Shown piece after piece: positions 1,738 through 24,539 of a stretch of 32,000 nucleotides of DNA (positions are counted from its first letter, which is position 1; every line of letters begins with the position of its first letter). The stretch spans positions 1-32,000 of the forward strand of contig JAWCFL010000015.1 of NCBI GenBank assembly GCA_038858525.1, read 5' to 3'. The DNA comes from Candidatus Jordarchaeales archaeon. Its GTDB lineage: Archaea; Asgardarchaeota; Jordiarchaeia; Jordiarchaeales; Freyrarchaeaceae. Made by a program: the position numbers and the translations under genes. The notes under the pieces are model-generated. The model was not told where the DNA came from and searched no databases. It was given only the letters and a program-made list of their open reading frames with translations.

Positions 1738-2567
1738 CTAAAAACCCTCCGAAAAACAAATTCGGATAACGAATAATTTTTTATTGCTGAAGAACAATAA
1801 AAAGATTCCTCAAGAGGACCGTGAACCGCCGAATCACTCAAAGCCACAAAATATCACTCTCCTCATTTAGTTTCTTAGACTTGGAAACAGCTCTTCACAG
1901 CCCTCAAACAGTAATCTTTCTCTCCTCAGCTAATAGCTGAACAGCATAAAACCACTAAACCGAGCCATCAGTCCAGCAGCCCTTACCTACAGAACCCATG
2001 AAGCTGGCTAAGGAAATGGCGCTAGAAAAAGTCAGAAAGGCTATAAAAGAGAGGAGACAGCTTCAAGCGGAAAAACTCGAGAAAATCGTTAGAAAGAAGT
2101 TCGAAACGTAAACTTTCCCGTTTCTATCAGCCTCTTCAACTCCCTCTTTTCATCTCCAAATTTCATGGCTCTCCTGGCCACGTCCATGCTCCTACCGTCA
2201 GCCAAAGCGATGCCACTAAGAGCAGACTCTGACGCTAGGCAGGCTATTTGGATGATGCGTCCTCCAAGGATGCTGCGGCTAGTGGAGGAGCCTAAAGTTG
2301 AGGACGTGGCCTTAGATGTTTGGAGGACTGCTTGTAAGCTTTTTGAGCTTCAAAGTACTGCTTTTAATTTCATCCATTCGAGGCATTTGCGGCACAATAA
2401 GCTGCCTCATTTTCGGAAATGACTTAAAGCATGAGAAGCTCAGAAACGGAGGCTGAGTAGTGTGGCATTTAGATGTTTTTATGTTAAGTGTGGAGTATTA
2501 ATGATAAATGTTAAAATGATGAATGGAAATACATAATTTTGATGATTGATGGTTCATTGGTGGGGTT

Positions 2568-4475
2568 TTGATGGTAATAGGGTGCATGTTGCTCAGTATT
2601 GGCGGAGTACCCATAGTTACCAGTATTGTTACGAACGTTTTTGGGGACATGGAGTCCTTATTCGCAGGGGCTATGAGCGCCATAAATAGCGTGATATCGG
2701 AGGTCATGAAGACGAGGGTTAGGTATGTGAGGACGGAGAGATATTACTTGTACTTCAGTTACTCTGGTGAGTTTATGCTTGTGCTCATCTCCGAAGTGGA
2801 GGACCCAAGGCTAAACCAGCTGGCTGACGCCGTGCTGAGTGAAGTGTTAAAGGTGGTTAAAGATTATGATCCTTCGAGTCTCATGTACAACCTTGAAATG
2901 CAGAAGCTTATAGAGAATGTGATTAAAGATAGTCTTACCAAGCATTTGCCCTCAATCTCCAGTGTCACCAAGGTTGCAGATATGCTGATCGCGTCGGCAG
3001 AAAGTTTTAGAGGAAGTATGAAGCTGGGACTGGGTAAAATAATATTTCTTCCCGAAGAGTTGAAGGCGGAGAAAATCGACGTGAAGGTTAAGGGGGAGGA
3101 GGACGTTAAGGAGCTCGTCAACTCGTTCTTAGATGGGGACTTTGAGCGTGCCGCAAGTGAAACGCCGGCACTTTTCAAGTCGGATCTGGCGAGGATCCTT
3201 TACGCTAAGGCGGCGTTAAAAATGAACTCTTTCCCGCCTGATGCGAAGGCTCCACCCCTAAGCAGGGTATACTCTGTTATAATGAGCGTGGAGGACAGCT
3301 TAGCGAGGAAACTCCTCATGGCGGAGCTGAGGAGGTTTCTGGAGGCCGGGACGTATTATGAAAGGGAGAAGTTGATTGATGAAAACCTATTCGAGCTAAT
3401 AGAAAAGATTAAGGCGGTTCACAGCGACGCTGGAGCGGTTTACATGGCTTTGGCCTTACCGACTGGGAGAAGAGAGATAATAGAAGTGGTTGAGCCACTT
3501 ATCGGAGAGAAACACCAACACGTTAGGCACGCTTTGAAGGCTACCCTCTCCATCCTGAAGACATCCATCCTGAGACTGGAGGAGTTTGAGAAGCCAAGCG
3601 CCGCCGTTGGCAGGATAAAGTACGAGCTGAGCAACGTGCCGCCGGGACTTGCGGAGGCATCCTACAACTACTTATTAGCGTTTCAGTTCGCCACACTGAG
3701 TAACCTGATGGAAAAAGACATGGACTTTGATGCTGGCCGTGAGTTGCTCAGCGACACTATTAAGGAGGTGGAGAAAAGGTATGATTCTCTAAGGAAGCTG
3801 TCTAGGAACGTTCCCTGCGACGTGCTGGCGGCAAACTACTGGTTCACTTACAACGCCCTTACAGGTATGTTGGTGTTCACTCTCCACGCCGAGGAAGTGG
3901 AGAAGGAGGCGTTAAAGTGCGGGAAGAAGGTGGCTGGGACGATAAGGTGGCTTATGGATGTGGCTAGGAGGAACAGGATCTCGGTTGACATGTACATTTT
4001 GGCGATGGCCGGTATGCTGGCGGCCTACTCCCGACTAATGTTTCTCCTAGGAACCCCAATTCTAGACGTGGCATACTATGTTAAGCAGCTAGCCCTCCCC
4101 GAGCTGGAAAACTTATGGGATTACTCTCCTCACCATTACCTGCACGTGGTCATAGACTGTCTTGAAGCATTAGGATACACGGCAAGCTTCCTCCCCGCGG
4201 AGGCTGCAAGAAGAAGTATACTGGAGGGGGTGGCACTAGGTTTAGAGGAGATACAAAGGAGAACCAGAGACATACCGGTAATATCCATGCCGGTAGCACT
4301 AAACGCCATAAGGTTCTACGTCCTGTGCGGAGAAGAGAAAGCGAAGGAGAAGGCGAGAAAGCTCGCGGAGGAAACTTCAAATGTCAACAAGTTCCTTGCA
4401 TCGCTCGCAATGAGATCCTTGAACATCGATAAAGCCCCAAAAAAGAAACTAGCCCCATACGACGTATTCACGTAG
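2568..4475 (+). CDS. Protein with an N-terminal longin-like domain and a long alpha-helical (solenoid/TPR-like) C-terminal region
   Basis: 635-aa ORF. The first ~125 aa follow the longin beta-beta-alpha-beta-beta-beta-alpha-alpha pattern (GCMLLSIGGVPIV...LFAGAMSAINSVISEV...VRYVRTERYYLYFSYSGEFMLVLISEVED...LADAVLSEV). The rest is amphipathic-helical with no catalytic motif. Fold call is by pattern recognition. Confidence 0.6.
   Translation: MMVIGCMLLSIGGVPIVTSIVTNVFGDMESLFAGAMSAINSVISEVMKTRVRYVRTERYYLYFSYSGEFMLVLISEVEDPRLNQLADAVLSEVLKVVKDYDPSSLMYNLEMQKLIENVIKDSLTKHLPSISSVTKVADMLIASAESFRGSMKLGLGKIIFLPEELKAEKIDVKVKGEEDVKELVNSFLDGDFERAASETPALFKSDLARILYAKAALKMNSFPPDAKAPPLSRVYSVIMSVEDSLARKLLMAELRRFLEAGTYYEREKLIDENLFELIEKIKAVHSDAGAVYMALALPTGRREIIEVVEPLIGEKHQHVRHALKATLSILKTSILRLEEFEKPSAAVGRIKYELSNVPPGLAEASYNYLLAFQFATLSNLMEKDMDFDAGRELLSDTIKEVEKRYDSLRKLSRNVPCDVLAANYWFTYNALTGMLVFTLHAEEVEKEALKCGKKVAGTIRWLMDVARRNRISVDMYILAMAGMLAAYSRLMFLLGTPILDVAYYVKQLALPELENLWDYSPHHYLHVVIDCLEALGYTASFLPAEAARRSILEGVALGLEEIQRRTRDIPVISMPVALNAIRFYVLCGEEKAKEKARKLAEETSNVNKFLASLAMRSLNIDKAPKKKLAPYDVFT
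4216..4435 (+). repeat. 220-bp exact direct repeat, copy A (copy B at 6256-6475)
   Basis: Line-by-line identity from gtatactggaggggg to catcgataaagc at an offset of exactly 2040 bp. Confidence 0.95.
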
Positions 4476-4585
4476 AAAGATACATCTGAAAATGCGTTTA
4501 AGCCTATTGAGATGTTACCCACGCACACAATAACAGACACTTTTTTAAGCAAATTATCCCCCATATTCAGGATTAGGTGGGAATA

Positions 4586-5545
4586 GTGAATCCGAAAAGT
4601 TACGCCGCACTCTTCACAGTTGTTGTATTCGTCCTAGCATTCGTCTACGCTACCTACACTATTCCAACAGAGATTGCTCTTGGAGCCATCCCCAACACCG
4701 TTGACCCCAGGCTATGGGTCTTCTCTCTCACCTATGGCGTAACTGCTGCAGTGGTGGCTATTTTGGCGCTGCTTGCCTACAGGGCTTCGAGGCCGCTGGT
4801 TGGAGCAGGAAGGCACGTAATGGAGTACTTCGCCCTAGCGCTAGTTTTCTACATGTTGGGCGCTGCAGCCACGTCTATCGGGCTAGGATCCTTTATAGCC
4901 ACAGGCATGTCGTTCAACCCGGCTGTCTGGTATGTGCCCTCCTTCGCTCACTGTGCCCCTATGGCAGTGATGTTTGCAGGCATAGCGCCGTACTTCATGC
5001 TTAAGTTCAGCTACTGGATGGCTGAGCAGAAGGACCCAGGAAGGGTTAGGGAGGCCTCCGTGCTGGCACCGCTCTCCATCCTCCTACTCGTAACAGTGTC
5101 ACCTATGAACTGGTTCGGAATGCACGCCCCAAGATTTAGCCTGCTGGACATGCAGCTGAAAGCGTACCTGCTTGGAATACTAGACCCCTGCCCCAGCCTT
5201 AGCTTGGAAGTCTACCCCGACATAGGAATCTTTTCAGATGGCTTACTGCTGCTGATCAACCTAGTTGCGATAACACAAGTAATCATTTTCCTACGCGGCA
5301 AGGCATCGAGCGAGAAAGACCCTGTTAGGGCTACCAGGATCAAAACCGTTGTTTTAGGTATCATCATGCTACTTGTGTTCTTCCTCTTCAACGTATTCGA
5401 CACCCTAGCAGGAGGCTTAACGGTATTATTGTTAATCGGCTTCGTATTCATGATAACGGCAGTAGTACTATTATACCTCGGAGTAGTAACCCCCGAATGG
5501 TACGCTTCATGGCTCCAAAAAAGAGCAAAAAGAGCAAAGAGCTAA
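4586..5545 (+). CDS. Polytopic membrane protein, ~8 TM (7TM-like core plus an N-terminal helix), copy 1
   Basis: Eight hydrophobic segments and a basic C-tail YLGVVTPEWYASWLQKR. The start is probably GTG 4586 (GGTGGG upstream; VNPKSY aligns with MEPKGY of the paralog) rather than 4577 as in the ORF track. Confidence 0.8.
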   Translation: MNPKSYAALFTVVVFVLAFVYATYTIPTEIALGAIPNTVDPRLWVFSLTYGVTAAVVAILALLAYRASRPLVGAGRHVMEYFALALVFYMLGAAATSIGLGSFIATGMSFNPAVWYVPSFAHCAPMAVMFAGIAPYFMLKFSYWMAEQKDPGRVREASVLAPLSILLLVTVSPMNWFGMHAPRFSLLDMQLKAYLLGILDPCPSLSLEVYPDIGIFSDGLLLLINLVAITQVIIFLRGKASSEKDPVRATRIKTVVLGIIMLLVFFLFNVFDTLAGGLTVLLLIGFVFMITAVVLLYLGVVTPEWYASWLQKRAKRAKS

Positions 5546-5715
5546 AGAAGAGCTAAAACGACAAAGGGACACGTTGCTTAGCATACTAGAAAGCACCGAA
5601 TACAACCTTCATTTATTAATCCAGCTAAACAATCCAAGATTTCCCAAAATGTTCATGTAAAAAGTTAATAATTCAAGCATGAAGTATTATCCTAGATTTT
5701 GGGTTGGATGCTCAA

Positions 5716-6500
5716 AGCGTGATATTATAGGTTATGAAGACGAAGTAGGTATGTGAAGACGGAAGTACCACTTTATACTTCAATCACTCTGATGAGTTGA
5801 CACTTGTGCTTATTTCTGAGGTGGAGGACACCAGACTATACCAGCTGGCTAACACCATCTGGGTGAAGTGTTGAGGATGACTGATGACCATTTGAGGTTA
5901 TTGTATGATTTTGAAGCGCATAGGCGAGATGATCAGGGAGAGCCCTGCTAGGCGTTTACCTTCAATTTCCATCGTCAGTAAGGTCGCGGATATGCTATCC
6001 GCATTGGCGGATATTATTAGGGGAGGGTGTAAGGCTGGGACTAGGCAGAATAATTTTTCTTCCCGGGAGAGTTAAAGGCAGGGAGAGTTGAAGCAAAGGC
6101 TGAGGGTAAGGAGGACATTAATGGGCTCATCAATCGTTCTTGAATGGAGACTTTAAGAGTGTTGTTAAAGAGAAGCCGTCTTTTTTCGAGTCAGATCTGG
6201 CAAGGATCCTTTACGCCAAAGCAGCTTTGAAGATGAATTCATTTCCGCCAGAGGTGTATACTGGAGGGGGTGGCACTAGGTTTAGAGGAGATACAAAGGA
6301 GAACCAGAGACATACCGGTAATATCCATGCCGGTAGCACTAAACGCCATAAGGTTCTACGTCCTGTGCGGAGAAGAGAAAGCGAAGGAGAAGGCGAGAAA
6401 GCTCGCGGAGGAAACTTCAAATGTCAACAAGTTCCTTGCATCGCTCGCAATGAGATCCTTGAACATCGATAAAGCATTGAGAAAGAGGCTAACTCAATAG
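5716..6500 (+). pseudogene. Decayed, internally deleted second copy of the longin/helical gene
   Basis: 5716-6250 aligns by eye with 2688-3239, with substitutions and frameshifts (e.g. LARILYAKAALKMNSFP retained). It is joined directly to 6256-6475, which is identical to 4216-4435. About 976 bp (3240-4215 equivalent) are missing. Confidence 0.85.
6256..6475 (+). repeat. 220-bp exact direct repeat, copy B
   Basis: Identical to 4216-4435. Confidence 0.95.
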
Positions 6501-6603
6501 GATATGTTCGCATAGGTAGAGACGAAAAGTATATCTCAAAAGTAATATAAATATCTGGAAGTGCATTTCGCACGCATCATATAACAGGTTGAGGAGGCTG
6601 ACT

Positions 6604-7563
6604 ATGGAGCCGAAAGGTTACTCTACTCTCTTCACCTTTGTGGTCCTCGCGTTTGCATTAATCTATGCTCTTTACACCATTCCAATGCAGATTGCCCTTG
6701 GAGCTATCCCTTACCTTGTCGACACAAGAATATTGGTCTCATTTTTCGCCTATGGAGGGATTACTGGGGCTGCGGCGTTTTTAACGCTGACCGCCTACAG
6801 GGCTTCGAGGCCGCTGGTTGGAGCAGGAAGACGCGTAATAGAGTATTTCACTATAGCACTAGCTTTTTACATGATGAGCACTGCGGCCATGACTCTCGGG
6901 CTAGGATTATTTATAGCCACAGGCATATCGTTCAGTCTAACTTGGTACGGGCTCATTTACCCATATTGCATTCCTATGGCAATGATGTTTGCGGGTATTT
7001 CGCCGTACTTCATGCTCAAGTTCAGCTACTGGATGGCTGAGCAGAAGGACCCAGGAAGGGTTAGGGAGGCCTCCGTGCTGGCACCGCTCTCCATCCTCCT
7101 GCCAGTAATGGTGCTTCCTCTAAACTGGTTTGGAGGCTACCCTCCAGTGTTCAGTCTATTGGACATGAATCTGAAAATATACCTGCTCGGACTCGGAATA
7201 CCATACCCTATCCTCAATATAGGCGTGAAAATCTATCCGGACATAAGGCTCTTCTCAAACGGCTTACTACTGCTAGTCAACCTAGTAGCGGTAACACAGA
7301 TAATCGCGTTTCTGTACCGTAAGGCAATGGAAGAAACTGATCACGTTAAGGCCGCTAGGCTCAAAACAGTACTCTACGGCTTCCTATCAATAGTAGGATT
7401 CTTCGCCTGCTACACACTCGACGCCATTATAGGAGGGGGCTTTACTATCCTGATGTTCATTGGTTTTGCCCTTTTGCTGACAGCGATTATATTATTATAC
7501 CTCGGAGTGGTGGCCCCCGAATGGTACGCCTCATGGCTCCAAAAAAGGAGGACGAAAACTTAA
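6604..7563 (+). CDS. Polytopic membrane protein, ~8 TM, paralog of 4586-5545 (copy 2)
   Basis: Colinear with copy 1 (AYRASRPLVGAGR, KFSYWMAEQKDPGRVREASVLAPLSILL, YLGVVxPEWYASWLQKR shared). GAGGAGG RBS at 6591-6597 supports ATG 6604. Confidence 0.85.
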   Translation: MEPKGYSTLFTFVVLAFALIYALYTIPMQIALGAIPYLVDTRILVSFFAYGGITGAAAFLTLTAYRASRPLVGAGRRVIEYFTIALAFYMMSTAAMTLGLGLFIATGISFSLTWYGLIYPYCIPMAMMFAGISPYFMLKFSYWMAEQKDPGRVREASVLAPLSILLPVMVLPLNWFGGYPPVFSLLDMNLKIYLLGLGIPYPILNIGVKIYPDIRLFSNGLLLLVNLVAVTQIIAFLYRKAMEETDHVKAARLKTVLYGFLSIVGFFACYTLDAIIGGGFTILMFIGFALLLTAIILLYLGVVAPEWYASWLQKRRTKT

Positions 7564-7841
7564 ACCAGCCGGAAGAAGCATATGCTCAGCAGGACTAAAA
7601 AGCACCGAACACAACAACCCTCCATTTTTTTAACAGCTAAAAAATAGGCTTCCTTATGCAACAAAGCAGTTGTATCCTCAATTTACGTAAAGTTCTAAAA
7701 TAAGTCTTATTAATGAAGTCATTCCAATAAACTTTAATATTTATCGTTAAGTAATTCTAATCGTTTTGTGGGTTCCACGCAACAATAACACAAATTTTTT
7801 ATTATTTCAACCTTTCATTTAGTTTAGAGTGGTCAGGAATA

Positions 7842-9116
7842 ATGGAGGTCACTCCTTTGTTTGACCGCGGTTTGGTTAAAACAACATCTATTTTTGTCAG
7901 TGTAATGCTAGGTGTTGTTCATCCTGTTTTTTGCTTCTTAACTTGTAAGCGCCAATTTGTTGAAACAATTTCTTTCTCGGGTTTAGCGTTTGCTACTTTA
8001 TTTGGCATCGGTGTTCTTTCAGGACTCCTATTATGGGTCTGGTTAGGTAGAGAACTGGGGTATAAGGCTCTCGGCATTCCTGAATCTGAGAAAAGACCAA
8101 CTAAAAGGATTGTCCTTGCATGGTCCCTAGTTGTTCCCGCCTCGCTTCTCGTAGCGACACCAACTCTAATCCTGCTAATTATTTTATATATAACTGGTTT
8201 ACTCGAACTTTTCCCCGTAACGTTTCTCATAATCTTCACGGTTATACTCGGTTTCTTTATAATATGGATCCTAATGAACAATGTCCAGTTCAGAGAAGCC
8301 ATTGAGATTTACCCAAAGCCATCCATAATGCTCACTATGCTCGGATTATTTATTACGGCATTAATCGCAGTTCTCTACTTTATTTATGTTTCAATCAACA
8401 TGTGGCAAAATAACCTTCGAATTCTATTCCTTACCTTGCCATCAATATGGCTCATGCTCATTAAAGCGATCCCTATCTTAAATTTACCCGAAGCCGAGTC
8501 GATTACACTTTCCTCGGGAATGCTTCTACTTATATACGTCGTTGCCGGCGCTATAGCCTTCATATTTTATGCTTTTAAGTATGCTAAAGAAAAAGGAACT
8601 TTTGAAGGTTCAATTATTGTTATGAAAGCGGGCGGAGATAGGGAAGTTAAGTGGGAAGAATTAAAGAGAGAGTTTTCAAGTCTAAGAGGAAAAGTTTTGG
8701 CCAGTTTACCTTACTTAGATGAAACTTCAGTAGAAATTCTTAAAGAGATCCCCAAAAATACGGAGGTACGTATTATTACAGGCGTGGTGGACAGTAAGTT
8801 TAGAAAAAAGATACAGGAACTAGAACGAGAAGGATTAAAAATAATTAAAATAAGTAGAAAGGGAGAAGAAAGCCCTGTGATCCATGACAGAATAGTGGTA
8901 GCTGATAATAAAATCCTAATTCTAGGAACAGACATTAAAAAATCAAGTCTCAGTAAAGGTACATTAATTTTAAGTCTTCGAACCAACATGCTCGAAAAAG
9001 TAGAGGAGTTGATTGGATTTTTAGAGGAGTATTGGAAAAAAAAAGATTATGAATTAGAAAAGGAGGACAACGCGAACAAAGAAACAATATATCCGGTAGG
9101 AACGAAAAAGGAATAA
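7842..9116 (+). CDS. Multi-TM protein with a C-terminal PLD-like (HDR variant) domain
   Basis: 424 aa. About 6-7 hydrophobic helices in aa 15-245, then LPYLD...EVRIITG...IHDRIVVADNKILILGTDIK, a single PLD-type HxK(x4)D-like motif with R in place of K. A sampled line has 33% G+C. Confidence 0.7.
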   Translation: MEVTPLFDRGLVKTTSIFVSVMLGVVHPVFCFLTCKRQFVETISFSGLAFATLFGIGVLSGLLLWVWLGRELGYKALGIPESEKRPTKRIVLAWSLVVPASLLVATPTLILLIILYITGLLELFPVTFLIIFTVILGFFIIWILMNNVQFREAIEIYPKPSIMLTMLGLFITALIAVLYFIYVSINMWQNNLRILFLTLPSIWLMLIKAIPILNLPEAESITLSSGMLLLIYVVAGAIAFIFYAFKYAKEKGTFEGSIIVMKAGGDREVKWEELKREFSSLRGKVLASLPYLDETSVEILKEIPKNTEVRIITGVVDSKFRKKIQELEREGLKIIKISRKGEESPVIHDRIVVADNKILILGTDIKKSSLSKGTLILSLRTNMLEKVEELIGFLEEYWKKKDYELEKEDNANKETIYPVGTKKE

Positions 9117-11418
9117 CGTTTATAGATTGTTAGAAGAGGGTGGTTAGTTTGACCTGATGACCAAGGTGTGGCTAAGCTTTTTTGATCTTTCCTAGTTGGT
9201 TTGTTAAACTTCGCTTAAAAATTTGATGAGGGAGATGAATGTTCTTCTTCATAGTAATTTGATTAATGAAGGGAGGTGTTGAGAGAGTTGAGGGTTACAA
9301 TCCATTTAAGCCTGAAGGGTCTGTTGAAGTTGGATGCTTGTTCCACACCAGTGCTGTAACGGTTTCACTATTTTCTTAGTTGTTACTGAGGAGATTGGAG
9401 TAGCCTAGAGCTGAAAGAGATTGGCAGGATAAATAAGGGTGAGACATGCGGAGCAACATGATCTGGTTGAATACTTATCTGTGGGGACCGTAATTATAAT
9501 CATAGAAATCAGGGGGAACTGGTAGCTTCAGCGTCCTAGGAGAGGTGAGAGGTTTCCAGCTCTTCGTAGGAGCAAGTGGTTTTAGAAGCACCTGGCTTCC
9601 TAGTCGACTCGGTTTACTAGAAAATCGTAGTTAATCCGAGGTCTTCAAACATAGCAATGGTCAAGCAACTCAAATCGGAAGTATGAGGCGGCGCTGGTTC
9701 ATTTTCCTTAGTAAATGTTAAGTTGCGGGGGAATGCAAAGGCGCGTAAAAGCGCATCAGCGTACTCAACATTGATGTAAGGTATTTTTCTCTGAAGGAGT
9801 AAGTAATGGTCTTCAGTATGCGTTGTAACCATAGGCTCCGAAGCCTACACATCTTATAGAAGAAACTTGATAAGTGTATAGGGTTACAAGATAAACATAG
9901 CATATCTATTAAACGTTAATTTACGATCCCCTTATTGAGGGTAGAAAGGGACCTGCAAAATAGCGCTACTCAGAAAGGTAGTGGAGGTATTCTTGGATCC
10001 GGAGGTGGAGATTCTGCACATGGGGTTCTCTAAGTTAAGGAGAGTGGAGTCCGGAAAGCACCGCCACTAAAGGCATAGTGGCCCTCTTTAAGTATGAGGT
10101 AAGTATGAGGACGCGGACATGATAACGGCAATTGAGATCCTTAAGCCGAAGGAGATACTAGACAAACTCAACTTATAATAGCTTTTTTGAGATTAGAGAG
10201 AAGTCTACTGAGGTTTTGCGGTGCGGCAGCGCGGCCGGGTTCACATAACTTTTATCGGGTGAGCCACTGGATCCACAGTGACCCTACGTGAACTGCTAGC
10301 GATATGAAGTCCACTTACCACGGAATGAGACGCTCTTAAAAAAATAGAGTGGGGCGGAGGGACTTTGGGGGGTCCGCGTGGTTAGTGCTGAGATTTAACT
10401 GTGAAAGCCTTAGATTTCGTAGTCACGATCGAAGGTGAAAACCTCTTTATTAACATGGAAAGATAGCATGAACGTTAAAGGCATGAACAATACAAATGCA
10501 ACTCAATTAAAGAAAATAGAGTTCACATTTAGCCTTCATAACTGAGTTAAACACTATGTGATAGACTCACAATCAAAAATTAAAATAAAAATGCTGTAAT
10601 AGGCGCGGGATGTTGTGCCACAGAGATTCTGAAAGAACCTAATGCGACATTCTCAGGGCTGCAGCAGTTAAGAAACAGACAAAAATCTGTATTTATACCG
10701 GAAGGGAGGCCTCAAGGGGTTAAGACGAACCGCCATGTGAAAGCTCATTCGAGCAAGCAGCTCTTTGAAAGGGGGCTTAAAAACTGGCTGTAGACTCAAG
10801 GAAGTTTACTGAAAAACGTAAGGCTTAACTATAATGAAAAGGGAGAGAAAGGTGGAGTTGAAATATTCAACATAGCTAGGGACGATTACGGCCTCAGTCG
10901 CCGAGCAGCTTAAAGAGATCAAAGTAAAAGTGGAGGAACCTGAAACCTCCAAACACTTAAGCCACTAAAAATGGAGCCGAAAAGGTTGAACGCTCAACTC
11001 TATGTTTAGCCACTTTAAGGGTTAAGAGTCCTAATAGGGGGCGGAGAGATCCCTTCCGACATAGCTTGCTCTGATTCCACGAAAATACGCCATTATTGCC
11101 TAATTGTCCACACCCCTTCATTTCCCACCTTTCGTCTAAATAAGTTACCTTAAAAAACTTCACGTCTTCAAGGGATGCGCCATTCCCTACTTCATGTTGC
11201 AATAAATTAACTTTAGCCACCAATTTTTTCTTGGTAAGCTTCATCCATTTCATTTTCTTTTATTCCAACATAATTTCCATTAATAGTTGTCTGTAAGTAT
11301 TCGGAAATCGTAGCCGAAAATCAACGTGAAAACAACCTGGGTGAAAAGGCTACAAGAAAGGCTAATATTGTGCTTATGGTTAGGTGGAGCTTGGCTTAAT
11401 GTTTCGATCGGGGATTGC

Positions 11419-12069
11419 ATGGAGTTAAGGATTGTTTACGATAATGAGGCTAAATTGGGCTTCAAGAGTGGTTGGGGGTTCTCCTGCCTGCTTGGAGACC
11501 ACTTGTTGTTCGACACGGGTGCCGACGCAGATGTCTTGCTATTCAACATGTGAAGGTTTTCCGTGGAGCTTGAAGACATCAACAGCGTTGTTTTGTCGCA
11601 TGATCACGGAGACCACACCGGCGGCCTCCGGATTCTGGAGAAGCTTGGAGACGTGGAGGTTTTCGTTCCACTCTCTTTCCCAAGTCAGTTTAAAAAGCGG
11701 CTGAGTTCCTATCCCAATGTCAGCCTTGTTGACGTGTCCGGGGAAAGGGAGATATCCCGCAACATTTTCACTACGGGCGAGCTCGGGCACTTCGTCAAGG
11801 AGCAGTCGCTAATCGTTAGGACGAACAGGGGCTTAACCGTCGTAACGGGGTGCGCACATCCAGGCTTAGAAAACATCTTGAAAGCTGCCTCGAAGCTCAG
11901 AAAGGTCTATGGGGTAGTAGGCGGCCTCCATGGATTCGATAAGCTGGAAACATTGAAGGAAGTAGGCTTGGTCGCCCCATGCCACTGCACCGCACGAAAA
12001 AGAGAGATATTAAACTTGTACCCGAAAACAAGCCTGAAGTGCTCAGCCGGATGTATAATCGAAATTTAG
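11419..12069 (+). pseudogene. MBL-fold metallo-hydrolase (COG1237-like) interrupted by one in-frame TGA at 11551-11553
   Basis: MELRIVYDN...GWGFSCL...LLFDTG...FNM*RFSVELEDINSVVLSHDHGDHTGG...TGCAHPG...GGLHG...PCHCT. Both track ORFs (11326-11553, 11563-12069) are in the same frame. Confidence 0.85.
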
Positions 12070-12590
12070 CGAGAAACACAACTTTTAGGGCTGCCACTTC
12101 CGTTAAATCTTAACTCACAAACATTAACCTTTAATAAAACTAAACTTACCTCTAACAAGTCCCGTTTCACATCCTCCGCCAAACTATGAAGCACCAGTTA
12201 AAACAGCCCACTTAGTTGAAGAAAAAGTATAGTAGGATAAAGGGATTGAACGAAAAATGGTTAGGAAAACATCGGGGAGACCTTTGAAGGGGGTTTGTTA
12301 GTAAAATTATAGGACTTTAGATTGTTTTGGACCACGCATAGCAAACGAGACGTGTACAGAGTGAAGAATAAGACGAAGGAACCAGCAAACATGTGAATCC
12401 AGATGCAATAACCAGATTTTGAAGTCCGTTGCTCTTGTTATTTTCTGACAAATTTTTGCCGTAATTAGAATTTAGAATACTGTACATAGTGCTTCATAGT
12501 TTAGCGGATATAGCATTTGAGCTAGGCCTCTTCGGGACATGTATAACTGTTTTTCATCTATAATTGTTTAGAGTTGTTCATTTTGAATGA

Positions 12591-12633
12591 GTGGGAATAT
12601 TTAAATATGTGGGAATTAGATGTCTAGTGGGAT
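12591..12633 (+). promoter_or_regulatory. Putative vapBC promoter/operator: TATA-like TTTAAATA within three GTGGGA repeats
   Basis: GTGGGA at 12591, 12609 and 12627 (18-bp period), with palindromic ATATTTAAATAT at 12597-12608. Confidence 0.4.
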
Positions 12634-12892
12634 GAAGTTTATGGAAAGCGTAAGGGTTGATGAAAAAGGCAGGATCCTTATTCCTAAAAGGATAAGGGAA
12701 AAAGCTGGAGTGAGGGAGGGAAGCTACGTTAAAATAAAGGCAGACGAAAAGGGCATAGTGATAGAGCCTCTTAGGGATATAGCCGACAGATACTTCGGCG
12801 CCTTCAAGGTAATTGAGTGGCCGGACGACCTCGACGAATTTGTAACCGAGGTTATGAGAAAATGGTGGACTCGGACCCAGAAGGATACGTAG
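12620..12892 (+). CDS. vapB: AbrB/MazE/SpoVT-family antitoxin
   Basis: VRVDEKGRILIPKRIREKAGVREGSYVKIKADEKGIVIEP is a canonical AbrB swapped-hairpin motif. It overlaps the PIN gene. The start may be ATG 12632 or 12641. Confidence 0.9.
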   Translation: MSSGMKFMESVRVDEKGRILIPKRIREKAGVREGSYVKIKADEKGIVIEPLRDIADRYFGAFKVIEWPDDLDEFVTEVMRKWWTRTQKDT

Positions 12893-13293
12893 ACGTAAAC
12901 GTTTTTGTTTATTGGCTCGGCAACCATCCCACCTTCGGCAGAACATCCTATGAATGGATAAAGAAAATCGAATTATCTCCACGGGGAAAATATGTAACTT
13001 CAGCTCTAACATTATACCAAATAATGGTAATAATGGCTGGATTAACAGGGAGAAACCTAAGGGACCAGGAACTAATCGGAGAAGTGGTAAACTCGGTGGA
13101 GAGCTTATCCGGTTTGAGAATAATACCTTTAACGGTAGAAGACGTAACCCAAGCAGTTAAACTCATGAAAGAATATAATCTGGATTATGAGGACGCAATA
13201 CACTTAGCTTCTGCGTTAAGGAGTAATGCCAAAGAAATGATATCCAACGACGAGGACTTCGATAGAACACCATTAAAAAGAAGATTCAGTTAA
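12862..13293 (+). CDS. vapC: PIN-domain ribonuclease toxin
   Basis: YVDVNVFVYWL...SALTLYQI...YEDAIHLASA...ISNDEDFD are PIN acidic motifs. Likely start is ATG 12862. Confidence 0.9.
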   Translation: MVDSDPEGYVDVNVFVYWLGNHPTFGRTSYEWIKKIELSPRGKYVTSALTLYQIMVIMAGLTGRNLRDQELIGEVVNSVESLSGLRIIPLTVEDVTQAVKLMKEYNLDYEDAIHLASALRSNAKEMISNDEDFDRTPLKRRFS

Positions 13294-13556
13294 AAGCGTA
13301 GAGAGTTTAGACTTCCCCACCGCTTCATCAAAATTTTCATCATAAAACAAATTACTAAGAAGGAGAACCTCACGAAATCGCGAAGCGAGAAGCCAAATCC
13401 ATAACGCCCAAACGAAAGAAGGCCTAACTTTCTAATTATATTGGATTCCACCCCCGTGTTCGGTTTTCCTATGAAAACGTTTATCCTTCTACAGTCCAGC
13501 TTCGAATGCTTTATAGACTTAGAGTTCTCTATCTCCAAACTCCCTATCACAATCAT
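13290..13556 (-). pseudogene. 5' remnant of an AAA_15/AAA_21-type ATPase
   Basis: SLEIENSKSIKHSKLDCRRINVFIGKPNTGVESNII matches the ENFKS...INVFIGxPNTGKSNI N-terminus. The Walker A Lys is lost and the gene is truncated. Confidence 0.75.
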
Positions 13557-13593
13557 CCTTTCCCATAACTCGCCCTTCGGCAGCCTTCACCCG

Positions 13594-13626
13594 CAACCTT
13601 ACTAGAAACAACCTTACTAGAAACAA
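13594..13626. repeat. 15-bp tandem duplication (CAACCTTACTAGAAA x2)
   Basis: Units at 13594-13608 and 13609-13623, just upstream of the ATPase remnant. Confidence 0.9.
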
Positions 13627-13943
13627 GACAACAAGCCACGAGAGAACTTACCAAACCCAGCTTTTAGGGATTTAGTGAAAGCTTCGCGAAGCCAAACCAC
13701 CAAGTCCTCCCAGAAACCGCCAAAGGAAACACCAAAAGGGGAAGGAAACTTTATGCTTAACCTGCAAACAAAAAGCTCCGCTTACCCTTCAAGAAGAGGC
13801 AAGAGGAGGGAGGAAAACGGCGGGCAAGTTCGACAAGAAAGAAGAACGTGTTATACTCCTCGAGAGGGGCTAGTGGACTCGTAAGATAATTGCTGAAACG
13901 TAATGCTTCTATAACGAAAAGGAAAAAGTCGGTGTCGAAGCAT

Positions 13944-14130
13944 TCAACATTTAACAGCCCTCCAAGCTTCCTTCTTAACATAATAATCGAGGGATCCCTT
14001 TCGGAGTGAATGTTTAGATACCTCGATGGAATATGATGCTTGTCAAGTTCCTTCGCCCTGTTGATAAAAGGATCCATAAAGATGCTCCTCGAGTAACTGT
14101 GCAGACAAACAAGAATAATGGCTCTCTTCG
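13944..14130 (-). pseudogene. 3' remnant of a HEPN-domain gene
   Basis: FINRAKELDKHHIPSRYLNIHSERDP, then after a frameshift DYYVKKEAWRAVKC*. This matches the HEPN C-terminal LDKxYIPxRYP...DYY pattern. Confidence 0.7.
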
Positions 14131-14176
14131 CGGAGAACTAGGTCTGTTATTTATAGCTCGCCTCCCGCCTTGGATT

Positions 14177-14564
14177 TCACGAAGTTGATGATTTTTTTCC
14201 ACTAGTAAAAATGGCTCTGCCTGCATCTGTTTCGTCAAATGCTTCTGAGGGGATGCCTCCAGAGGGAGTTTGGGTAGTGGGTTGGAATGTAGAATTTGTC
14301 GAGTAGGGCGGCGTCTCGTTGAATGTTGGAGAAGTCGTCGTCGAAGTGTTATGCGTCACTGCACAAGTCAGAGGTTAAGTACCCTCACGCCTCCTCGGCA
14401 CCCTTAAGTATGAGGAAGGCTTTTAGGGCTTTTTCTGCGGATTGCTGTGCCAGAAAGCAGGCAACATTATACCTTTTGCCTGAAAGGTTATATTTTGCGT
14501 CATCCAGGTCCCGGAGCGCCTGGAGAAACCATCTTTTCGCCTCTCTCACGCTGCTGTCTCTCAT
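14177..14564 (-). pseudogene. HEPN toxin pseudogene (MNT-HEPN pair)
   Basis: REAKRWFLQALRDLDDA...ACFLAQQSAEKALKAFL...A*GYLTSDLCSDA*HFDDDFSNIQRDAALLDKFYIPTHYPNSL, then a frameshift into GGIPSEAFDETDAGRAI. Two stops and one frameshift. Confidence 0.85.
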
Positions 14565-14899
14565 AGAGGGCCCTCCCACTTCTTAAGGCAGACCTTACAA
14601 ATTGATTGCTCTCCTTCATCTCCTTAAATTCCTCCGGGGTATAGACGAGAATGCCCACCCCCTCCACCCTCGGCTCGAGATGAGCATAGAAGTCCTCCAG
14701 CCTGCTCAGAAATCCCTTATCCGTCCTCTTCACAACAATCAAATCGATATCACTTGACTTGTGAACGGAGCCCGACGCCAAAGAGCCAAAAAGAATAATT
14801 TTCTCCACATCAAACTCAACGATCCTCGGCACAATCCTCCTCAGCTCACCCTCCAAAAAGCTCTCTCCTCCTCTCCGCCAACCCCACTCTAAACGGCAT
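14561..14899 (-). pseudogene. MNT antitoxin with a 5' frameshift
   Basis: IILFGSLASGSVHKSSDIDLIVV...GILVYTPEEF...GRALYE. The natural start ATG 14899 (MPFRVGLAERRRELL) is shifted by an extra T in a T5 run. The 3' end is approximate. Confidence 0.75.
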
Positions 14900-15580
14900 A
14901 CCACCACCAAACTCTTCTAATACCAAACCTTTCAAATACATCATCTACCAAACCCATAACAACACACACTCTTATCTCTTCTTCCACTCAAACGAGTCCA
15001 TAGACCACACAAAACTACAATTCAAACTATGTCACACCTTATGCAATAAGCCAGCACTTATTCAACACGCCTGCTAAGTTAAAGTTGGGTCAGTTCACCC
15101 TAACTGAGGTCGTGATAGCTACCGGACATGTGTAGCTGGACAAGACACTGTTACAATACAAGAGCCTACATCAACTTGGTAGACCCCGGGAGGAACGAGC
15201 AAACGGGCTGACTAAAGGCAAGCTGGTCTTGTCTTCGCAACTCGCACTTCACATCTCTTAGGTTTACATTTTCACCTAACAATTTACTTTGGTCTTCGTT
15301 TTGCTGTTATTGAAGTGGAATCTTAAGGCTGGATAATCTAAATAATTTGCGAAATTAAAAGAGGTGCAGCTATGAAACAGACACCTTACTAGACAGAAAA
15401 AGGGCGTGACACTCCTACTAGAATTCCTGTGAGGATCCAAGAACTATGACCTCCCTTCAGTACCTTCCAGCCTTCCCATGCATGTTTTTAGAGGTAAAAC
15501 ATTCAATTCTTTGTCCTTTTAATGAAGTTTCTTCTTAGCAAAGCTTTCAGTATTCCAGCTATCTGCTTTTACAACTTGGC

Positions 15581-16240
15581 TCAAAAAAGAAAGGTATGGT
15601 TCTCCACGTGTGAGAGGATCCAACGGCAAGAATTGAGAAAAACATACGAGAGAGGATCCCCCATCATTATTCGGTATGTTGAGAAAAAGTTGAGATTTAT
15701 AGTCACGTACCACGTTAGGATGACATCTCTTTCAACGTAACGGTGAGTTACTCCAATGTTTGGTAACCCTAACCTATTCACCTTTTTTCTTGACGTGTCT
15801 ATAAAGGAAGTCATCTTTGCAGTAGAAAATTTTCGGGGTGTTGTAGTCAAAAAACACCGCCCTCTTTATCAGGGTGTTACAAACGAACGGTGTCTCCCTT
15901 TATATAGACTGGTTTTATCTTGCTAGTAACATTCTTGTAAGGCTTCAATATGTATGTCGTCATCTGTGCATACTGTTGAAACGGCTACAACATTTGGATA
16001 CTTGGTAAACTTGCTAACAACGTCAAACCGGTTTGATGGGATTTCGACGTCATCGTCGAACATAGTTATCCATTCGGTTTTGCATTTCATTGCTCCTTAT
16101 CTTTCTCGGCTATAGACAATGGTTTCGAAGTCTCAAATACAATATTGTTAACCCATGGAGCATTCGCAAGAACCTTTATCAAATTAGGATTTACTATTTG
16201 ATGGGTCTTTGGTTGGGATTAAAACATCAATCTTGTCCAT
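15581..16240 (-). pseudogene. Glycosyltransferase family 2 (GT-A) pseudogene
   Basis: Manual multi-frame reading: MDKIDVLIPTKDP / LIKVLANAPWVNNIVFETSKPLSIA / GAMKCKTEWITMFDDDVEIP (DxD) / DDFLYRHVKKKG. Several frameshifts. Confidence 0.6.
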
Positions 16241-16539
16241 TGCAAGCAATAATATGCATTCGAACTTAAAAGTTAATGTGCCACAAGTAAAAGTTCTGCT
16301 CCAGCTTAATTTCGTTAAACTGCTTGGGAGTATAACGCCGAGTGGCTTCCTCCCACTAGCTGCTATCATTTATTCATTACTGTTACCAAGACTCTGTCAT
16401 TCGAAGATCGAGAGCTTAGTTCTTAATATACCCTCCTTTTACCGTAAGAAACCCTGTTTTTGCATTTTTAGGTATTTTAATGATAATGAAAAAACCGTGT
16501 TTTACATCACTATCAATCTATTGGCTTAGATTGTCGATT

Positions 16540-18021
16540 TTATTTAGGTAGGACGAAAGTTATGATGTGAAAATTGTCAATTTTATCGAGTTTGTAAAGG
16601 TCAAAACCAGCTTCTTTTGTTATCTCTATGCATTTTTCAAGAATAGTTTTGTCTTCTTCATGCAAAATCGTTGTAAAATACCGAGATGACTTAAGGACGC
16701 GGCGCATTTCAAGGACGAATCTAGTGTACATGTCTAAGTATTTCTTTAGATCTTTTCCTTGTCTAGGATTCACTACAAACTCCTTTTCGAAATCCAGTTC
16801 CTCTTTCATCCATGAAGTATAGAAGGTGCTCAATTCAAAGAATTGCGCTTCGTCCGTGTGAGGCGGATCCGTTATAACATAGTCAACGGAGTTATCGGGT
16901 AATGAGAGCTTTGCTGCATCATCTAAAAGAAAGGCTACGTCAGCTTTTTTTCCAAGTACTTCTGCGTTTCCTCCCTCTTTTCGCTTACATTGACAAGAAG
17001 ATAGCTTGTGTATAAGGTCATTTGCCGCTCTTATAAAGACGTAGAATGGATTTCTAATTACATACTTGCGAGGTATCCAATAGCTGTTTATTGGCCAGGT
17101 GCCTCCAGAAGGCCTATTCATTTTACTGCTCCTTGCAAGAGTTGCCATGAAAATTAGGTGTAAACACTTTTTTGTAGTGTATGAAACGTTTATTTCGTTG
17201 ATCTTGTGCCAAAGGTATGATAGGAAAGCAAGAGTTCGGCTGTCAAAAAACTCGTGAACACGTTCCACATCTCTCTTCTTTAAAAATGGTTTCCCATCAG
17301 GATACCTCAGTTCAGTTTTTGGATACCAATATGCCGGGCGAATAGGATCCTCAATCAGCCACTCAGGCTCACAAAAACCATTTATTTCCGTTCTCCCGCA
17401 AATACATGGTTTAACATAATTAATCTCAATGGGTAAAACTTGTTCTGTAACAGCACCCATTTTAATTAAACCTTTTAGCGCATTGGTGACTCCATTTTTC
17501 TGTATGTCAGACAGTTGTTCCACAAGCTTTTCATGTGTTACAAAATCACTTTCTCTAATTTTTTCCAGTACCTTTCTTCGCAGCTTGGTAGCTTTTTCAG
17601 GCTCAAAATTAAACATGTAAAACCTAGTAAAAATTATAGACTTTACCTCTGCTATTTCGCCACAAGGGCACTTTATTGAAAAAAGTTCTTTTCTGCTAAC
17701 TTTTATCTTCTTCTCTCCAGTAACAACCTCGATTTCTTCATCCTGAACAATGACGTCTATAACCTTTTTCAGCTCTTCGACATCGCAACCCAAAATAGTT
17801 CCCTCTGCAATAAGCTTAGCGAATGAATTAAGGTCGACATAAATAGCTCTTCTTCCTAATTCAAGAGCTACCTTCACTATGTTTCCGCTTCCGGCAAACG
17901 GGTCAAGAACCACCTCACCCTCCTTCGTGAACTCTTCAATATATTTTGACACCATAAAAGGCGGCTTCCTCCCCCAGTACCTCACCAACTTAGGACTATC
18001 GACAACCATTTTTGTCACCAT
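16540..18021 (-). CDS. Amino-DNA methyltransferase (N6-A/N4-C), alpha-type motif order, with Cys-flanked HTH-like insert
   Basis: YWGRKP; motif I VLDPFAGSG; DLNSFA; long central region; motif IV variant DYVITDPPH. Start most likely ATG 18021, just after the upstream stop (track start 18054 overlaps). Confidence 0.88.
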   Translation of the reverse strand: MVTKMVVDSPKLVRYWGRKPPFMVSKYIEEFTKEGEVVLDPFAGSGNIVKVALELGRRAIYVDLNSFAKLIAEGTILGCDVEELKKVIDVIVQDEEIEVVTGEKKIKVSRKELFSIKCPCGEIAEVKSIIFTRFYMFNFEPEKATKLRRKVLEKIRESDFVTHEKLVEQLSDIQKNGVTNALKGLIKMGAVTEQVLPIEINYVKPCICGRTEINGFCEPEWLIEDPIRPAYWYPKTELRYPDGKPFLKKRDVERVHEFFDSRTLAFLSYLWHKINEINVSYTTKKCLHLIFMATLARSSKMNRPSGGTWPINSYWIPRKYVIRNPFYVFIRAANDLIHKLSSCQCKRKEGGNAEVLGKKADVAFLLDDAAKLSLPDNSVDYVITDPPHTDEAQFFELSTFYTSWMKEELDFEKEFVVNPRQGKDLKKYLDMYTRFVLEMRRVLKSSRYFTTILHEEDKTILEKCIEITKEAGFDLYKLDKIDNFHIITFVLPK

Positions 18022-18026
18022 ACTAA

Positions 18027-23008: not shown

Positions 23009-24500
23009 CCCAGTGCACAGAATTTTTGGGCAAAGAGAAAAATTTTGAAATAGGTATTACGCCTCTTTGAGCTAATTTCAGAGATCTATTAAAGTGCATC
23101 AACACACTAGAATCATTAATTGAAAGATTTAATTTATTTCTTATGATATCCTTAATTTCCATTAAATCCTTTCCTTTTCCTTGGCATTTATTTATCCAAA
23201 TGGCGATTTTTAATGCTTGAGTAATATGCATCTTTAACTCGTTTTCTTTTAGTTTAAATAAGTGATCGAAACCATAAAGAGTCAAGAGACTTTCAATTAA
23301 GGATGGATGAAGATAAAATAGAACATTATTAATGATTTGATAAACGCCTAGACTCTCCAAAATAATTTTAATTCCTTCCCATTTTTGGAGAAGACGAAAC
23401 GCAATAGTATCCCAATTAAGTTTATGCTGCTTAAAAAACGGGCTGTGAAAAACGTCTACCATCTCACGTTTTATTTTCTCTAACGTTGCTTCCAGACTTA
23501 ACGGTTCAGAAGATTCAAGATATTTTCGCCTCAACACGATGGAAGCAATAGTTATCACTATATTACTGTATTCATCATCAAACAATGCTGAAGAGTTTAA
23601 GGGATACAGTAATATTTGAAAGGAAGGATGTTTTTGCGTATATTCGTCATATATTCTTATACGCTTTATTATAACTGCCTCAGTTAATGATTTGTTTTCA
23701 ATGAGATGTGAATTTTCTTTAGGCAATAAGCAATAACATAATTTGGAATTTAGTGTATTATCGAGTATGTTGACCTTTAATTTAAGATAATGATTTCCTG
23801 ATGTTTTAACTTGCTTCGGGTCTAGATAACAGACCGTTTTATGGAGTGTAAAAATATCTAACTGTCTGTCACCAATGATTATGAATGGTGATTCATACCA
23901 TACAAATTTGTTTGTCAGGTCTGGGGGGTATAAAGCATTGAATATGTATTTTTTACTCAACTTAAGGGTTGAATCAACGTTGTTGCACCAGATTCTTTCC
24001 ACAGATTTAAGCCAGGCAAAATTAGCCATTGAAATATAGACATTTTTTGATGGAGAAAGAATAGTAAACAGAAAATTTTTGAGACGAAGATATTTTAAAC
24101 TAGATGGATCTAATATTGCTTGTTTTTCACCCCAATAGACAGCTGTAAAGATTCTATCAAATGAGAAGCTGTAAACTGGAAGGAAAGATGCTCTTTTGTG
24201 AAGTACTACGGGAGTTAGTGATAAATCTCGCTTGATCAAATTACGCCATTTAACTTGAGGGAATATTTCTCCAATTTCAAATATAAAGAACAATTTATTT
24301 AAATTTGTGGAACTGCAACTATCCTTTAGTTGCAATCTAATACAAAAATTCTGTTCATCGATACCTATGCACGGATGTTTATTACTATGAAGAAAATTAT
24401 ATGCACGAAACAAGTATTCCTTGTAGCTTTTTTGCATTATTTTATTTCCTTTTAAAATGTAATTCATATGCTCCTCAAGAACAACTTTTTCAACGTCCAT
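22983..24500 (-). CDS. Hypothetical protein (~505 aa), first gene of the low-GC operon
   Basis: Long uninterrupted ORF overlapping the helicase start by 26 bp. No recognisable motif. ATG 24500 is preferred because TTG 24521 lies too close to the TATA box. Confidence 0.75.
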   Translation of the reverse strand: MDVEKVVLEEHMNYILKGNKIMQKSYKEYLFRAYNFLHSNKHPCIGIDEQNFCIRLQLKDSCSSTNLNKLFFIFEIGEIFPQVKWRNLIKRDLSLTPVVLHKRASFLPVYSFSFDRIFTAVYWGEKQAILDPSSLKYLRLKNFLFTILSPSKNVYISMANFAWLKSVERIWCNNVDSTLKLSKKYIFNALYPPDLTNKFVWYESPFIIIGDRQLDIFTLHKTVCYLDPKQVKTSGNHYLKLKVNILDNTLNSKLCYCLLPKENSHLIENKSLTEAVIIKRIRIYDEYTQKHPSFQILLYPLNSSALFDDEYSNIVITIASIVLRRKYLESSEPLSLEATLEKIKREMVDVFHSPFFKQHKLNWDTIAFRLLQKWEGIKIILESLGVYQIINNVLFYLHPSLIESLLTLYGFDHLFKLKENELKMHITQALKIAIWINKCQGKGKDLMEIKDIIRNKLNLSINDSSVLMHFNRSLKLAQRGVIPISKFFSLPKNSVHWDECDEHNK

Positions 24501-24539
24501 AAAGCTCCATTCACCTCTCAAAAAATAGGTGATTGATTT

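Follow-up and report, generated by a model that had tools for sequence, protein, structure and literature searches.

A longin-solenoid gene beside two membrane-protein paralogs in a Jordarchaeales archaeon: a candidate lineage-specific form of an Asgard longin-membrane protein module

In the conservons of actinobacteria, a membrane sensor kinase (CvnA), a roadblock protein (CvnB), CvnC and a Ras-like GTPase (CvnD) are encoded by a four-gene cassette. Proteins of the longin/roadblock type are expanded and much shuffled in Asgard archaea, where they account for 130 asCOGs (Liu et al., bioRxiv 10.1101/2020.10.19.343400), and 41 longins have been counted in one Lokiarchaeon (Tran et al. 2024, PMC10933270). 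The dozens of longin/roadblock genes and GTPases per Asgard genome have almost never been matched to their partners, since the longin/roadblock genes are seldom found in operons with them (PMC10933270). Here we describe a locus in which such a match is proposed. It lies in a DNA stretch of 32,000 nucleotides (nt), termed the window (contig JAWCFL010000015.1 of assembly GCA_038858525.1, positions 1 to 32,000, forward strand), from a Jordarchaeales (Asgard) archaeon, and consists of a gene for a longin domain fused to a helical solenoid (the “scaffold”) followed by two genes for polytopic membrane proteins.

The reading that we favor, at a probability of about one half, is that a two-gene module conserved among Asgard archaea is present here in a form particular to this lineage: a cytoplasmic longin protein, which in this case continues into a solenoid, and a polytopic membrane protein dedicated to it act together at the membrane. 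Asgard longin proteins as such are known; the fusion of a longin domain to a solenoid and its pairing with an uncharacterized family of seven or eight transmembrane (TM) helices appear to be new. A literal text search of the open-access literature, which cannot exclude an earlier description, found neither the longin-solenoid family nor the longin-7TM gene pair. The locus had been singled out from its sequence (below: the original prediction); what was observed there is confirmed, and its interpretation is partly supported. The open reading frames (ORFs) are as given at that time, with start sites now refined by alignment with homologs. Three intact ORFs follow each other on the plus strand, and the remains of a fourth lie between the second and the third:

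2568-4475, plus strand: scaffold gene (product P0001); the ORF opens at TTG 2568 (635 amino acids, aa), and the likely start, placed by alignment with homologs, is ATG 2571 (634 aa)
2571-2954, plus strand: longin domain of the scaffold (aa 1-128), in the order beta-beta-alpha-beta-beta-beta-alpha-alpha, with no N-terminal helix
4577-5545, plus strand: membrane paralog 1 (P0002); the ORF opens at GTG 4577 (322 aa), likely start 4586 (~319 aa)
5713-6509, plus strand: scaffold pseudogene between the membrane genes, a broken second scaffold copy
6589-7563, plus strand: membrane paralog 2 (P0003); the ORF opens at TTG 6589 (324 aa), likely start ATG 6604 (~319 aa)

The two genes stay together in other archaeal genomes, as the original prediction would have it. 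All four close scaffold orthologs found elsewhere, in genomes G113, G114 and G115 of the window's own GTDB family f1 and in G292 of family f25, are followed on the same strand, after a gap of 70-132 nt, by a homolog of the membrane protein; behind 14 more distant scaffold paralogs no such homolog follows. Beyond these orthologs, 48 loci with distant 7TM homologs, drawn from at least four further GTDB families, were inspected and the neighboring genes scored with a longin profile. A stand-alone longin gene is the immediate upstream neighbor of the 7TM gene in 13 of 42 cases, the immediate downstream neighbor in none of 46, and occurs among two of the 199 other ORFs of these loci (2/245 if the downstream neighbors are included). 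Three further loci harbor a bona fide Roadblock/LC7 gene upstream, and the remaining neighbors are unrelated housekeeping genes. The positive loci belong to four GTDB families, in which the pair is either co-directional with a 4-nt overlap (f8) or divergent (f15, f16 and f20), and the solenoid-fused layout, again co-directional, is found in f1 and f25. These upstream longins suggest that the association between longin proteins and the membrane family is much older and wider than the Jordarchaeales pair, and it is in Jordarchaeales that the longin partner acquired its predicted solenoid. Proteins of ~580-690 aa encoded upstream of some distant 7TM homologs were considered as diverged scaffolds and rejected: they turned out to be unrelated, namely fusions of the DHDPS-APH kinase type and one TROVE/Ro60 protein.

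Several points weigh against a joint function. The upstream enrichment (odds ratio 54) has a p-value of 2e-10, which is nominal and ignores shared ancestry; nine of the 13 positive loci come from the single family f20, and about two thirds of the distant 7TM homologs are without a recognizable longin or roadblock neighbor. In three genomes the gap between scaffold and membrane gene (100-130 nt) has an oligo-T run (CTTTTTT) with an A/T-rich stretch behind it, and the two genes may thus have separate transcripts. Other scaffold subfamilies adjoin non-membrane genes, in one subfamily a rubrerythrin-like gene, and so the solenoid scaffold is not tied to membrane partners as such. Finally, that scaffold and membrane protein are in contact, and by which surface, is something that we infer. 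Most of these points would suit the alternative that the genes are neighbors by descent in a few lineages and have no joint function, the wider association arising from shared ancestry and from the abundance of longins in Asgard archaea. We regard this alternative as distinctly improbable, given that the association occurs in three different layouts (overlapping, divergent and solenoid-fused), that the longin genes are confined to the upstream side of the 7TM genes, and that the pair was duplicated as a unit.

The scaffold is predicted to consist of a longin domain (aa 1-128), a low-confidence linker (~aa 129-180) and a TPR-like alpha-solenoid (~aa 180-625). The AlphaFold2 (AF2) model of the protein, built from a shallow alignment, is poor, with a predicted local distance difference test score (pLDDT) of 54 overall and of 33-67 in the longin part, for which DSSP assigns strands (E) and helices (H) in the order E4-10, E15-21, H28-46, E53-55/60-66, E69-75, H80-97 and H102-124. 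A sequence profile built from 25 of the N-terminal domains and run against the PDB matched the TRAPP subunit Bet5 (7ea3_D, E 1.1e-6, positions 2-98), 3cue_C (E 7.3e-6), TRAPPC1 (7b6d_C, E 0.0035) and the delta-COP longin (5mu7_B, E 0.0051), and matched Mon1 at E 0.23. Exhaustive fold comparison of residues 2-128 with VIA-align gave synbindin as the best partner (2zmv_A; Z 12.2, root-mean-square deviation 2.8, 121 aa), ahead of the SYBL1/VAMP7 longin (2dmw, Z 11.6), AP-3 sigma (Z 11.2), sedlin (Z 10.9), AP2 mu and Sec22 (Z 10.8 each) and CPLANE (7q3d_C, Z 10.1), with delta-COP, SRX and Ykt6 as further partners; all listed matches are longin domains. The Atlas's own model of the scaffold reaches TM-scores of 0.79-0.84 to Asgard clusters that have the same domain, either alone or in fusions with Arf/Ras GTPases or with V4R, TPR or receiver domains, and one cluster matched over its whole length (138 aa, TM-score 0.74 by the match) is annotated as FUZ/MON1/HPS1 first longin domain family.

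Because profile matches, the order of strands and helices and fold matches agree, the N-terminus of the scaffold is a longin domain, as originally proposed, and not a roadblock, profilin or PAS domain. Scans of P0001 against Pfam and NCBIfam gave nothing, with no Pfam match at E <= 1, and the Pfam longin thresholds (PF19036 Fuz_longin_1, PF04099 Sybindin) are not reached by the scaffold, by its family members or by small longin homologs. The latter yield repeated sub-threshold matches to Fuz_longin_1, the best at E 4e-5 with 24.2 bits against a cut-off of 26.1. A Roadblock/LC7 identity (PF03259) was rejected: the chain opens with strand 1 and not with a helix, it has no Pfam match, and the profile match to Robl_LC7 (7f8f, E 0.018) is weaker than those to longins. 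Likewise rejected was a tri-longin Rab-GEF subunit (GEF, guanine nucleotide exchange factor) such as Mon1, Ccz1, Fuzzy, Inturned, HPS1 or HPS4, since the scaffold possesses a single longin domain and from residue 102 to 634 only helices.

The remainder of the scaffold, expected to be all-helical, is modeled accordingly as a solenoid. Residues 180-625 match TPR proteins with Atlas TM-scores of 0.50-0.63, and VIA-align gives Z 9-11 to MalT domain III, PlcR, NprR, Ctr9 and a proteasome lid subunit, to be read against a quoted helical-repeat background of Z ~13. As these scores lie within that background and no member of the scaffold family has a Pfam TPR match, the body is termed only “TPR-like”. 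A profile of the full-length scaffold, run against the PDB, retrieved nothing except designed helical proteins and coiled coils (E >= 0.02). In an exhaustive profile search the family comprised 51 cluster representatives only, mostly of 600-640 aa. Among 400 Asgard genomes, full-length matches are limited to the five GTDB families f1, f22, f24, f25 and f30, and the first ~120 residues alone match ORFs of 130-700 aa nearly everywhere.

The host genome also encodes a scaffold paralog (G000:C29:16018-17862; L002 1408-3369), which is 32% identical and has the same longin-plus-solenoid build. Three nt behind it begins a gene (L002 3373-3921) for a rubrerythrin-like protein of 182 aa that has a CxxC...CxxC motif at its C-terminus, and the combination of a scaffold paralog with a downstream rubrerythrin-like gene for ~182-189 aa recurs in G114, G285 and G286. 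The rubrerythrin-like gene is a second conserved partner of the scaffold family.

The membrane proteins P0002 and P0003 are 61% identical as proteins and 71% as genes overall, and paralog 2 is intact, with all family-invariant residues kept. The AF2 model (from a shallow alignment; pLDDT 62) and hydropathy indicate eight TM helices followed by a C-terminal amphipathic helix, which together with the alignment of homologs bears out the predicted partner of about eight TM helices. Across 36 aligned homologs a core of seven helices is shared; the forms from Jordarchaeales have an additional helix at the N-terminus and an extended loop behind a conserved P-x-N-W-(W/F)-G motif. Since the loops after core helices 1, 3 and 5 and the C-terminus are basic, the core is predicted to adopt an N-out/C-in orientation. 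This would place the segments YRASRPLVGAGRR, KFSYWMAEQKDPGRVRE and RGK...KDPVRATRIK as well as the P-E-W-Y tail helix on the cytoplasmic side. Close homologs occur in Jordarchaeales-type genomes only, and the last ~100 residues also match ORFs of ~250-270 aa in about 50 other Asgard genomes. One membrane homolog, P0011 (QXX87_00965), shares its N-terminal half letter for letter with P0012 and its C-terminal half with P0010; it looks like a chimera that arose by recombination between two paralogs at the conserved central loop.

The membrane family stands apart from described families. Pfam and NCBIfam scans of P0002 and P0003 gave nothing usable, the sole match for the three proteins of the locus being a chance-level one to Rhomboid_2 (E 0.016); none of 36 scanned family members matches any described 7TM family, and a family profile has no match in the PDB at E <= 10. 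Searching the PDB with Foldseek, the model (pLDDT 62) obtained a best E of 0.03 with TM-scores of 0.35-0.42. With VIA-align the seven-helix core of this weak model is best superposed on G-protein-coupled receptors (GPCRs), namely Ste2 (Z 9.4 over 231 aa) and an adhesion GPCR (Z 9.3), followed by the alkaline ceramidase ACER3 (Z 8.6), adiponectin receptor 2 (AdipoR2, Z 7.4) and BAR domains, and the Atlas TM-scores to serpentine receptors amount to 0.45-0.57.

Some of these features would fit an enzyme or transporter, for instance a 7TM hydrolase or a lipid-modifying protein, to which the longin protein would be a regulatory or assembly subunit. The polar or charged residues D275, N178, W179 and R79 (P0002 numbering), which lie in or beside helices and partly within the P-x-N-W-(W/F)-G motif, vary little or not at all across the family, and hydrolases are among the fold matches. 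Yet the family lacks sequence similarity to such proteins in the Pfam, NCBIfam and PDB profile searches, the PxNWWG motif, predicted to lie on the outer side, corresponds to no known catalytic signature, and the conserved surfaces are chiefly cytoplasmic loops. We consider such an enzyme or transporter unlikely.

The original prediction saw the membrane protein as a receptor and the locus as a receptor-transducer pair. Developed further, a ligand-sensing seven-helix receptor would switch a longin platform that serves as GEF or GTPase-activating protein (GAP) for a small GTPase, a prokaryotic analogue of receptor-regulator-G-protein signaling. Longin/roadblock dimers, eukaryotic and bacterial, are indeed platforms for small GTPases (PMC10933270), and GPCRs give the best superpositions of the core. 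The 2.09-Mb host genome, which holds only ~13 longin domains, codes for ~12 Ras/Rab/Arf-like small GTPases and for two longin-Arf fusions: the ORFs G000:C46:9482-10246 (minus strand) and G000:C17:38134-38913 (plus strand), of ~300-316 aa, combine a longin domain of the same type with an Arf-like GTPase domain. Longin-GTPase coupling thus exists in this organism, though not at this locus. However, no small GTPase gene is located near the pair, according to the window and a GTPase survey of the host genome, nor does one occur among the neighbors in the 48 distant 7TM loci. The GPCR match, made with a model of pLDDT 62, lies below the quoted helical-bundle background and is nearly equaled by the hydrolases ACER3 and AdipoR. 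Moreover, neither HisKA_7TM nor GPCR membership nor a link to any other receptor family emerged from the sequence searches named above. The likeness to receptors is that of one seven-helix bundle to another; the protein possibly forms a receptor-like bundle, and a downstream GTPase of the pair is speculative. We therefore hold receptor-to-GTPase signaling to be rather unlikely. That there is an Asgard pathway from receptor via longin regulator to small GTPase, of which the Jordarchaeales longin-solenoid protein would be an elaborated scaffold form, appears to us quite improbable; if true, it would constitute a prokaryotic forerunner of eukaryotic membrane-receptor/GTPase signaling.

For the two-gene module that we favor, the mechanism would be as follows. 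The docking site of the longin domain would be the conserved cytoplasmic face of the membrane protein, to which three loops, basic or charged, contribute along with the amphipathic P-x-W helix at the C-terminus. In this docking model the KFSYWMAEQKDPG loop and the C-terminal PEWY helix would be needed for binding. The membrane protein would anchor or control the longin platform at the membrane, and in Jordarchaeales the solenoid would recruit further partners. The most conserved and the gene-converted segments of the membrane protein map to predicted cytoplasmic loops. A prediction of the complex of longin domain and membrane protein scored 0.00; controls were not run, and the result speaks neither for nor against binding.

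The locus also documents how the pair was duplicated. Families of direct repeats at a spacing of ~2015-2040 nt, together with the broken scaffold copy, bear out the tandem duplication that had been proposed. The parts that record its later history are:

5716-6249, plus strand: N-terminal remnant in the scaffold pseudogene, 73% nt identity to 2688-3238, with several stops and frameshifts
3239-4215 of copy 1: positions missing from the pseudogene, an internal deletion of ~977 nt
6256-6475, plus strand: C-terminal remnant of the pseudogene, an exact tract of 220 nt, 100% identical to 4216-4435 at the 3' end of the intact scaffold gene
4775-4812, plus strand: exact match of 38 nt to 6793-6830 in paralog 2, coding for the loop YRASRPLVGAGR
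5003-5085, plus strand: exact match of 83 nt to 7018-7100 in paralog 2, coding for the conserved, predicted cytoplasmic loop KFSYWMAEQKDPGRVREASVL
5585-5606 and 7594-7615, plus strand: core of 22 nt, ACTAnAAAGCACCGAAnACAAC, in the 3' flanks, 31-40 nt past the stop codon of each membrane gene

After a tandem duplication, the second scaffold decayed, and both membrane paralogs stayed intact and were partly homogenized by gene conversion. Outside the exact runs the membrane genes are 53-80% identical; the runs are identical at synonymous sites as well, which argues for gene conversion and not for selection alone. The 220-nt tract starts exactly at the deletion junction, and this arrangement suggests a recent repair or gene-conversion event templated by the intact copy. 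Among themselves, the intact scaffold genes of G000, G113 and G114 are 76-78% identical, and the N-terminal remnant shows 73-74% identity to them; the duplication is hence older than the species of this genus. The likeness between the two 3' flanks (5575-5630 and 7585-7645), on which the original prediction had drawn, is real and short, coming down to the 22-nt core. This core has just two copies in the 2.09-Mb genome, where shuffled sequences lead one to expect 0 matches. A conserved regulatory element was rejected; the core is missing from the loci of relatives, which points to a leftover of the duplicated flank.

The membrane-protein tree joins paralog 1 to the upstream divergent copy of the sister genome G114 (100/100 support), a genome in which a single scaffold gene is flanked by two membrane paralogs. 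Tree and layout indicate that the lineages rearranged the duplicate differently, and that each kept two membrane genes and one scaffold. Since both membrane paralogs are intact and gene-converted, the single remaining scaffold probably serves both. The proposal of one intact scaffold for two membrane paralogs was already part of the original prediction, and the arrangement in G114 makes it plausible.

Metagenomes from elsewhere carry the same arrangement. The sequencing runs that contain the sequence are hot-spring metagenomes, and contigs from three hot-spring DNA runs, each of a different study, were compared with positions 2400-7700. Each of the three runs has one unitig over 5494-6285, which leads from the end of membrane gene 1 across the pseudogene remnant to a point 30 nt inside the exact repeat. 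All four junctions of the 220-nt repeat are present, and the unitigs stop 30 nt inside both copies and on both sides, as two genuine copies predict. Because three independent runs carry these junctions, an assembly artefact was rejected as the source of the pseudogene and of the 100% identical tract. Contigs from a sediment RNA library, 95-99% alike (a relative that is ~97% alike), fall on the scaffold gene and on both membrane genes; they provide weak evidence of expression, since carry-over of DNA is possible. These contigs leave 5763-6470 uncovered, a gap in cover that counts as no evidence.

The named database homologs of scaffold and membrane protein come from Candidatus Jordarchaeales, and a genome search puts the window in the Asgard phylum, where the N-terminal domain of the scaffold has matches in 336 of 400 genomes; for these two reasons the host is assigned to the Asgard archaea, in agreement with the early guess. 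Directly after membrane paralog 2 lies a 424-aa ORF (7842-9116, plus strand) with no Pfam match at E <= 0.001, in DNA whose GC content falls to 0.38. The following ~7.4 kb (9117-16530) hold no stop-to-stop frame of more than 192 aa on either strand, and scans of the whole window for Rfam families and tRNAs gave no match. Archaeal genomes are not usually so poor in genes, and the stretch may consist of decayed or foreign DNA. An operon on the minus strand (16540-24521), likewise in low-GC DNA, encodes a 512-aa protein, a DEAD/Helicase_C helicase, a fusion of MZB (MrfA Zn-binding) and PLD domains and an N6/N4 DNA methylase.

The conserved pair ties one longin subfamily to one membrane family, so that two proteins can be tested together, and the sequences point to the predicted cytoplasmic loops as the likely contact surface. 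It thereby offers a concrete way to ask how longin platforms first reached membranes, a step at the heart of ideas about how trafficking and signaling arose in eukaryotes. The locus also illustrates clearly how, in nature, a duplicate decays in the presence of gene conversion, with one adaptor gene left beside two membrane paralogs.

Compared with described systems, the membrane family resembles HisKA_7TM, 7TMR-DISM and MASE sensors and eukaryotic GPCRs in its predicted seven-helix bundle, the predicted N-out/C-in orientation and a C-terminal amphipathic helix reminiscent of helix 8. It differs from them by the absence of sequence membership and of a fused output domain, and by the eighth, N-terminal helix in Jordarchaeales, and its likeness in fold does not exceed the helical-bundle background. 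With the actinobacterial conservon, the pair shares the placement of a membrane-protein gene beside a gene of the roadblock superfamily in a conserved cassette. There, however, the membrane component is a histidine-kinase-like sensor and a GTPase is included, whereas the Asgard module has two genes, neither of which codes for a kinase or a GTPase.

The best profile and fold matches of the scaffold N-terminus are the core longins of TRAPP (Bet5/TRAPPC1, synbindin/TRAPPC4 and sedlin/TRAPPC2). These are small stand-alone subunits, which are positioned between Bet3-family subunits and act on Rab1, whereas the longin of the scaffold continues into a solenoid, and its gene has neither a Bet3/TRAPPC3-like nor a Rab gene as a neighbor. 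Ragulator-Rag and MglB-MglA share the concept, as there too a longin/roadblock platform is placed at the membrane by a dedicated partner. They are anchored by a lipidated peptide (LAMTOR1) or through a basic patch, and their GTPase partner is known; in the Asgard pair, which has no GTPase nearby, the anchor would be a polytopic membrane protein. Within the Asgard longin/Roadblock-LC7 superfamily, the N-terminal domain of the scaffold belongs to the widespread longin group present in those 336 of 400 genomes. Fusions of Asgard longins to GTPases, V4R, two-component domains and TPR are known or seen in Atlas clusters, and the scaffold is another longin fusion, set apart from the known Asgard longins by a TPR-like solenoid of ~450 aa and by its pairing with a dedicated 7/8-TM protein.

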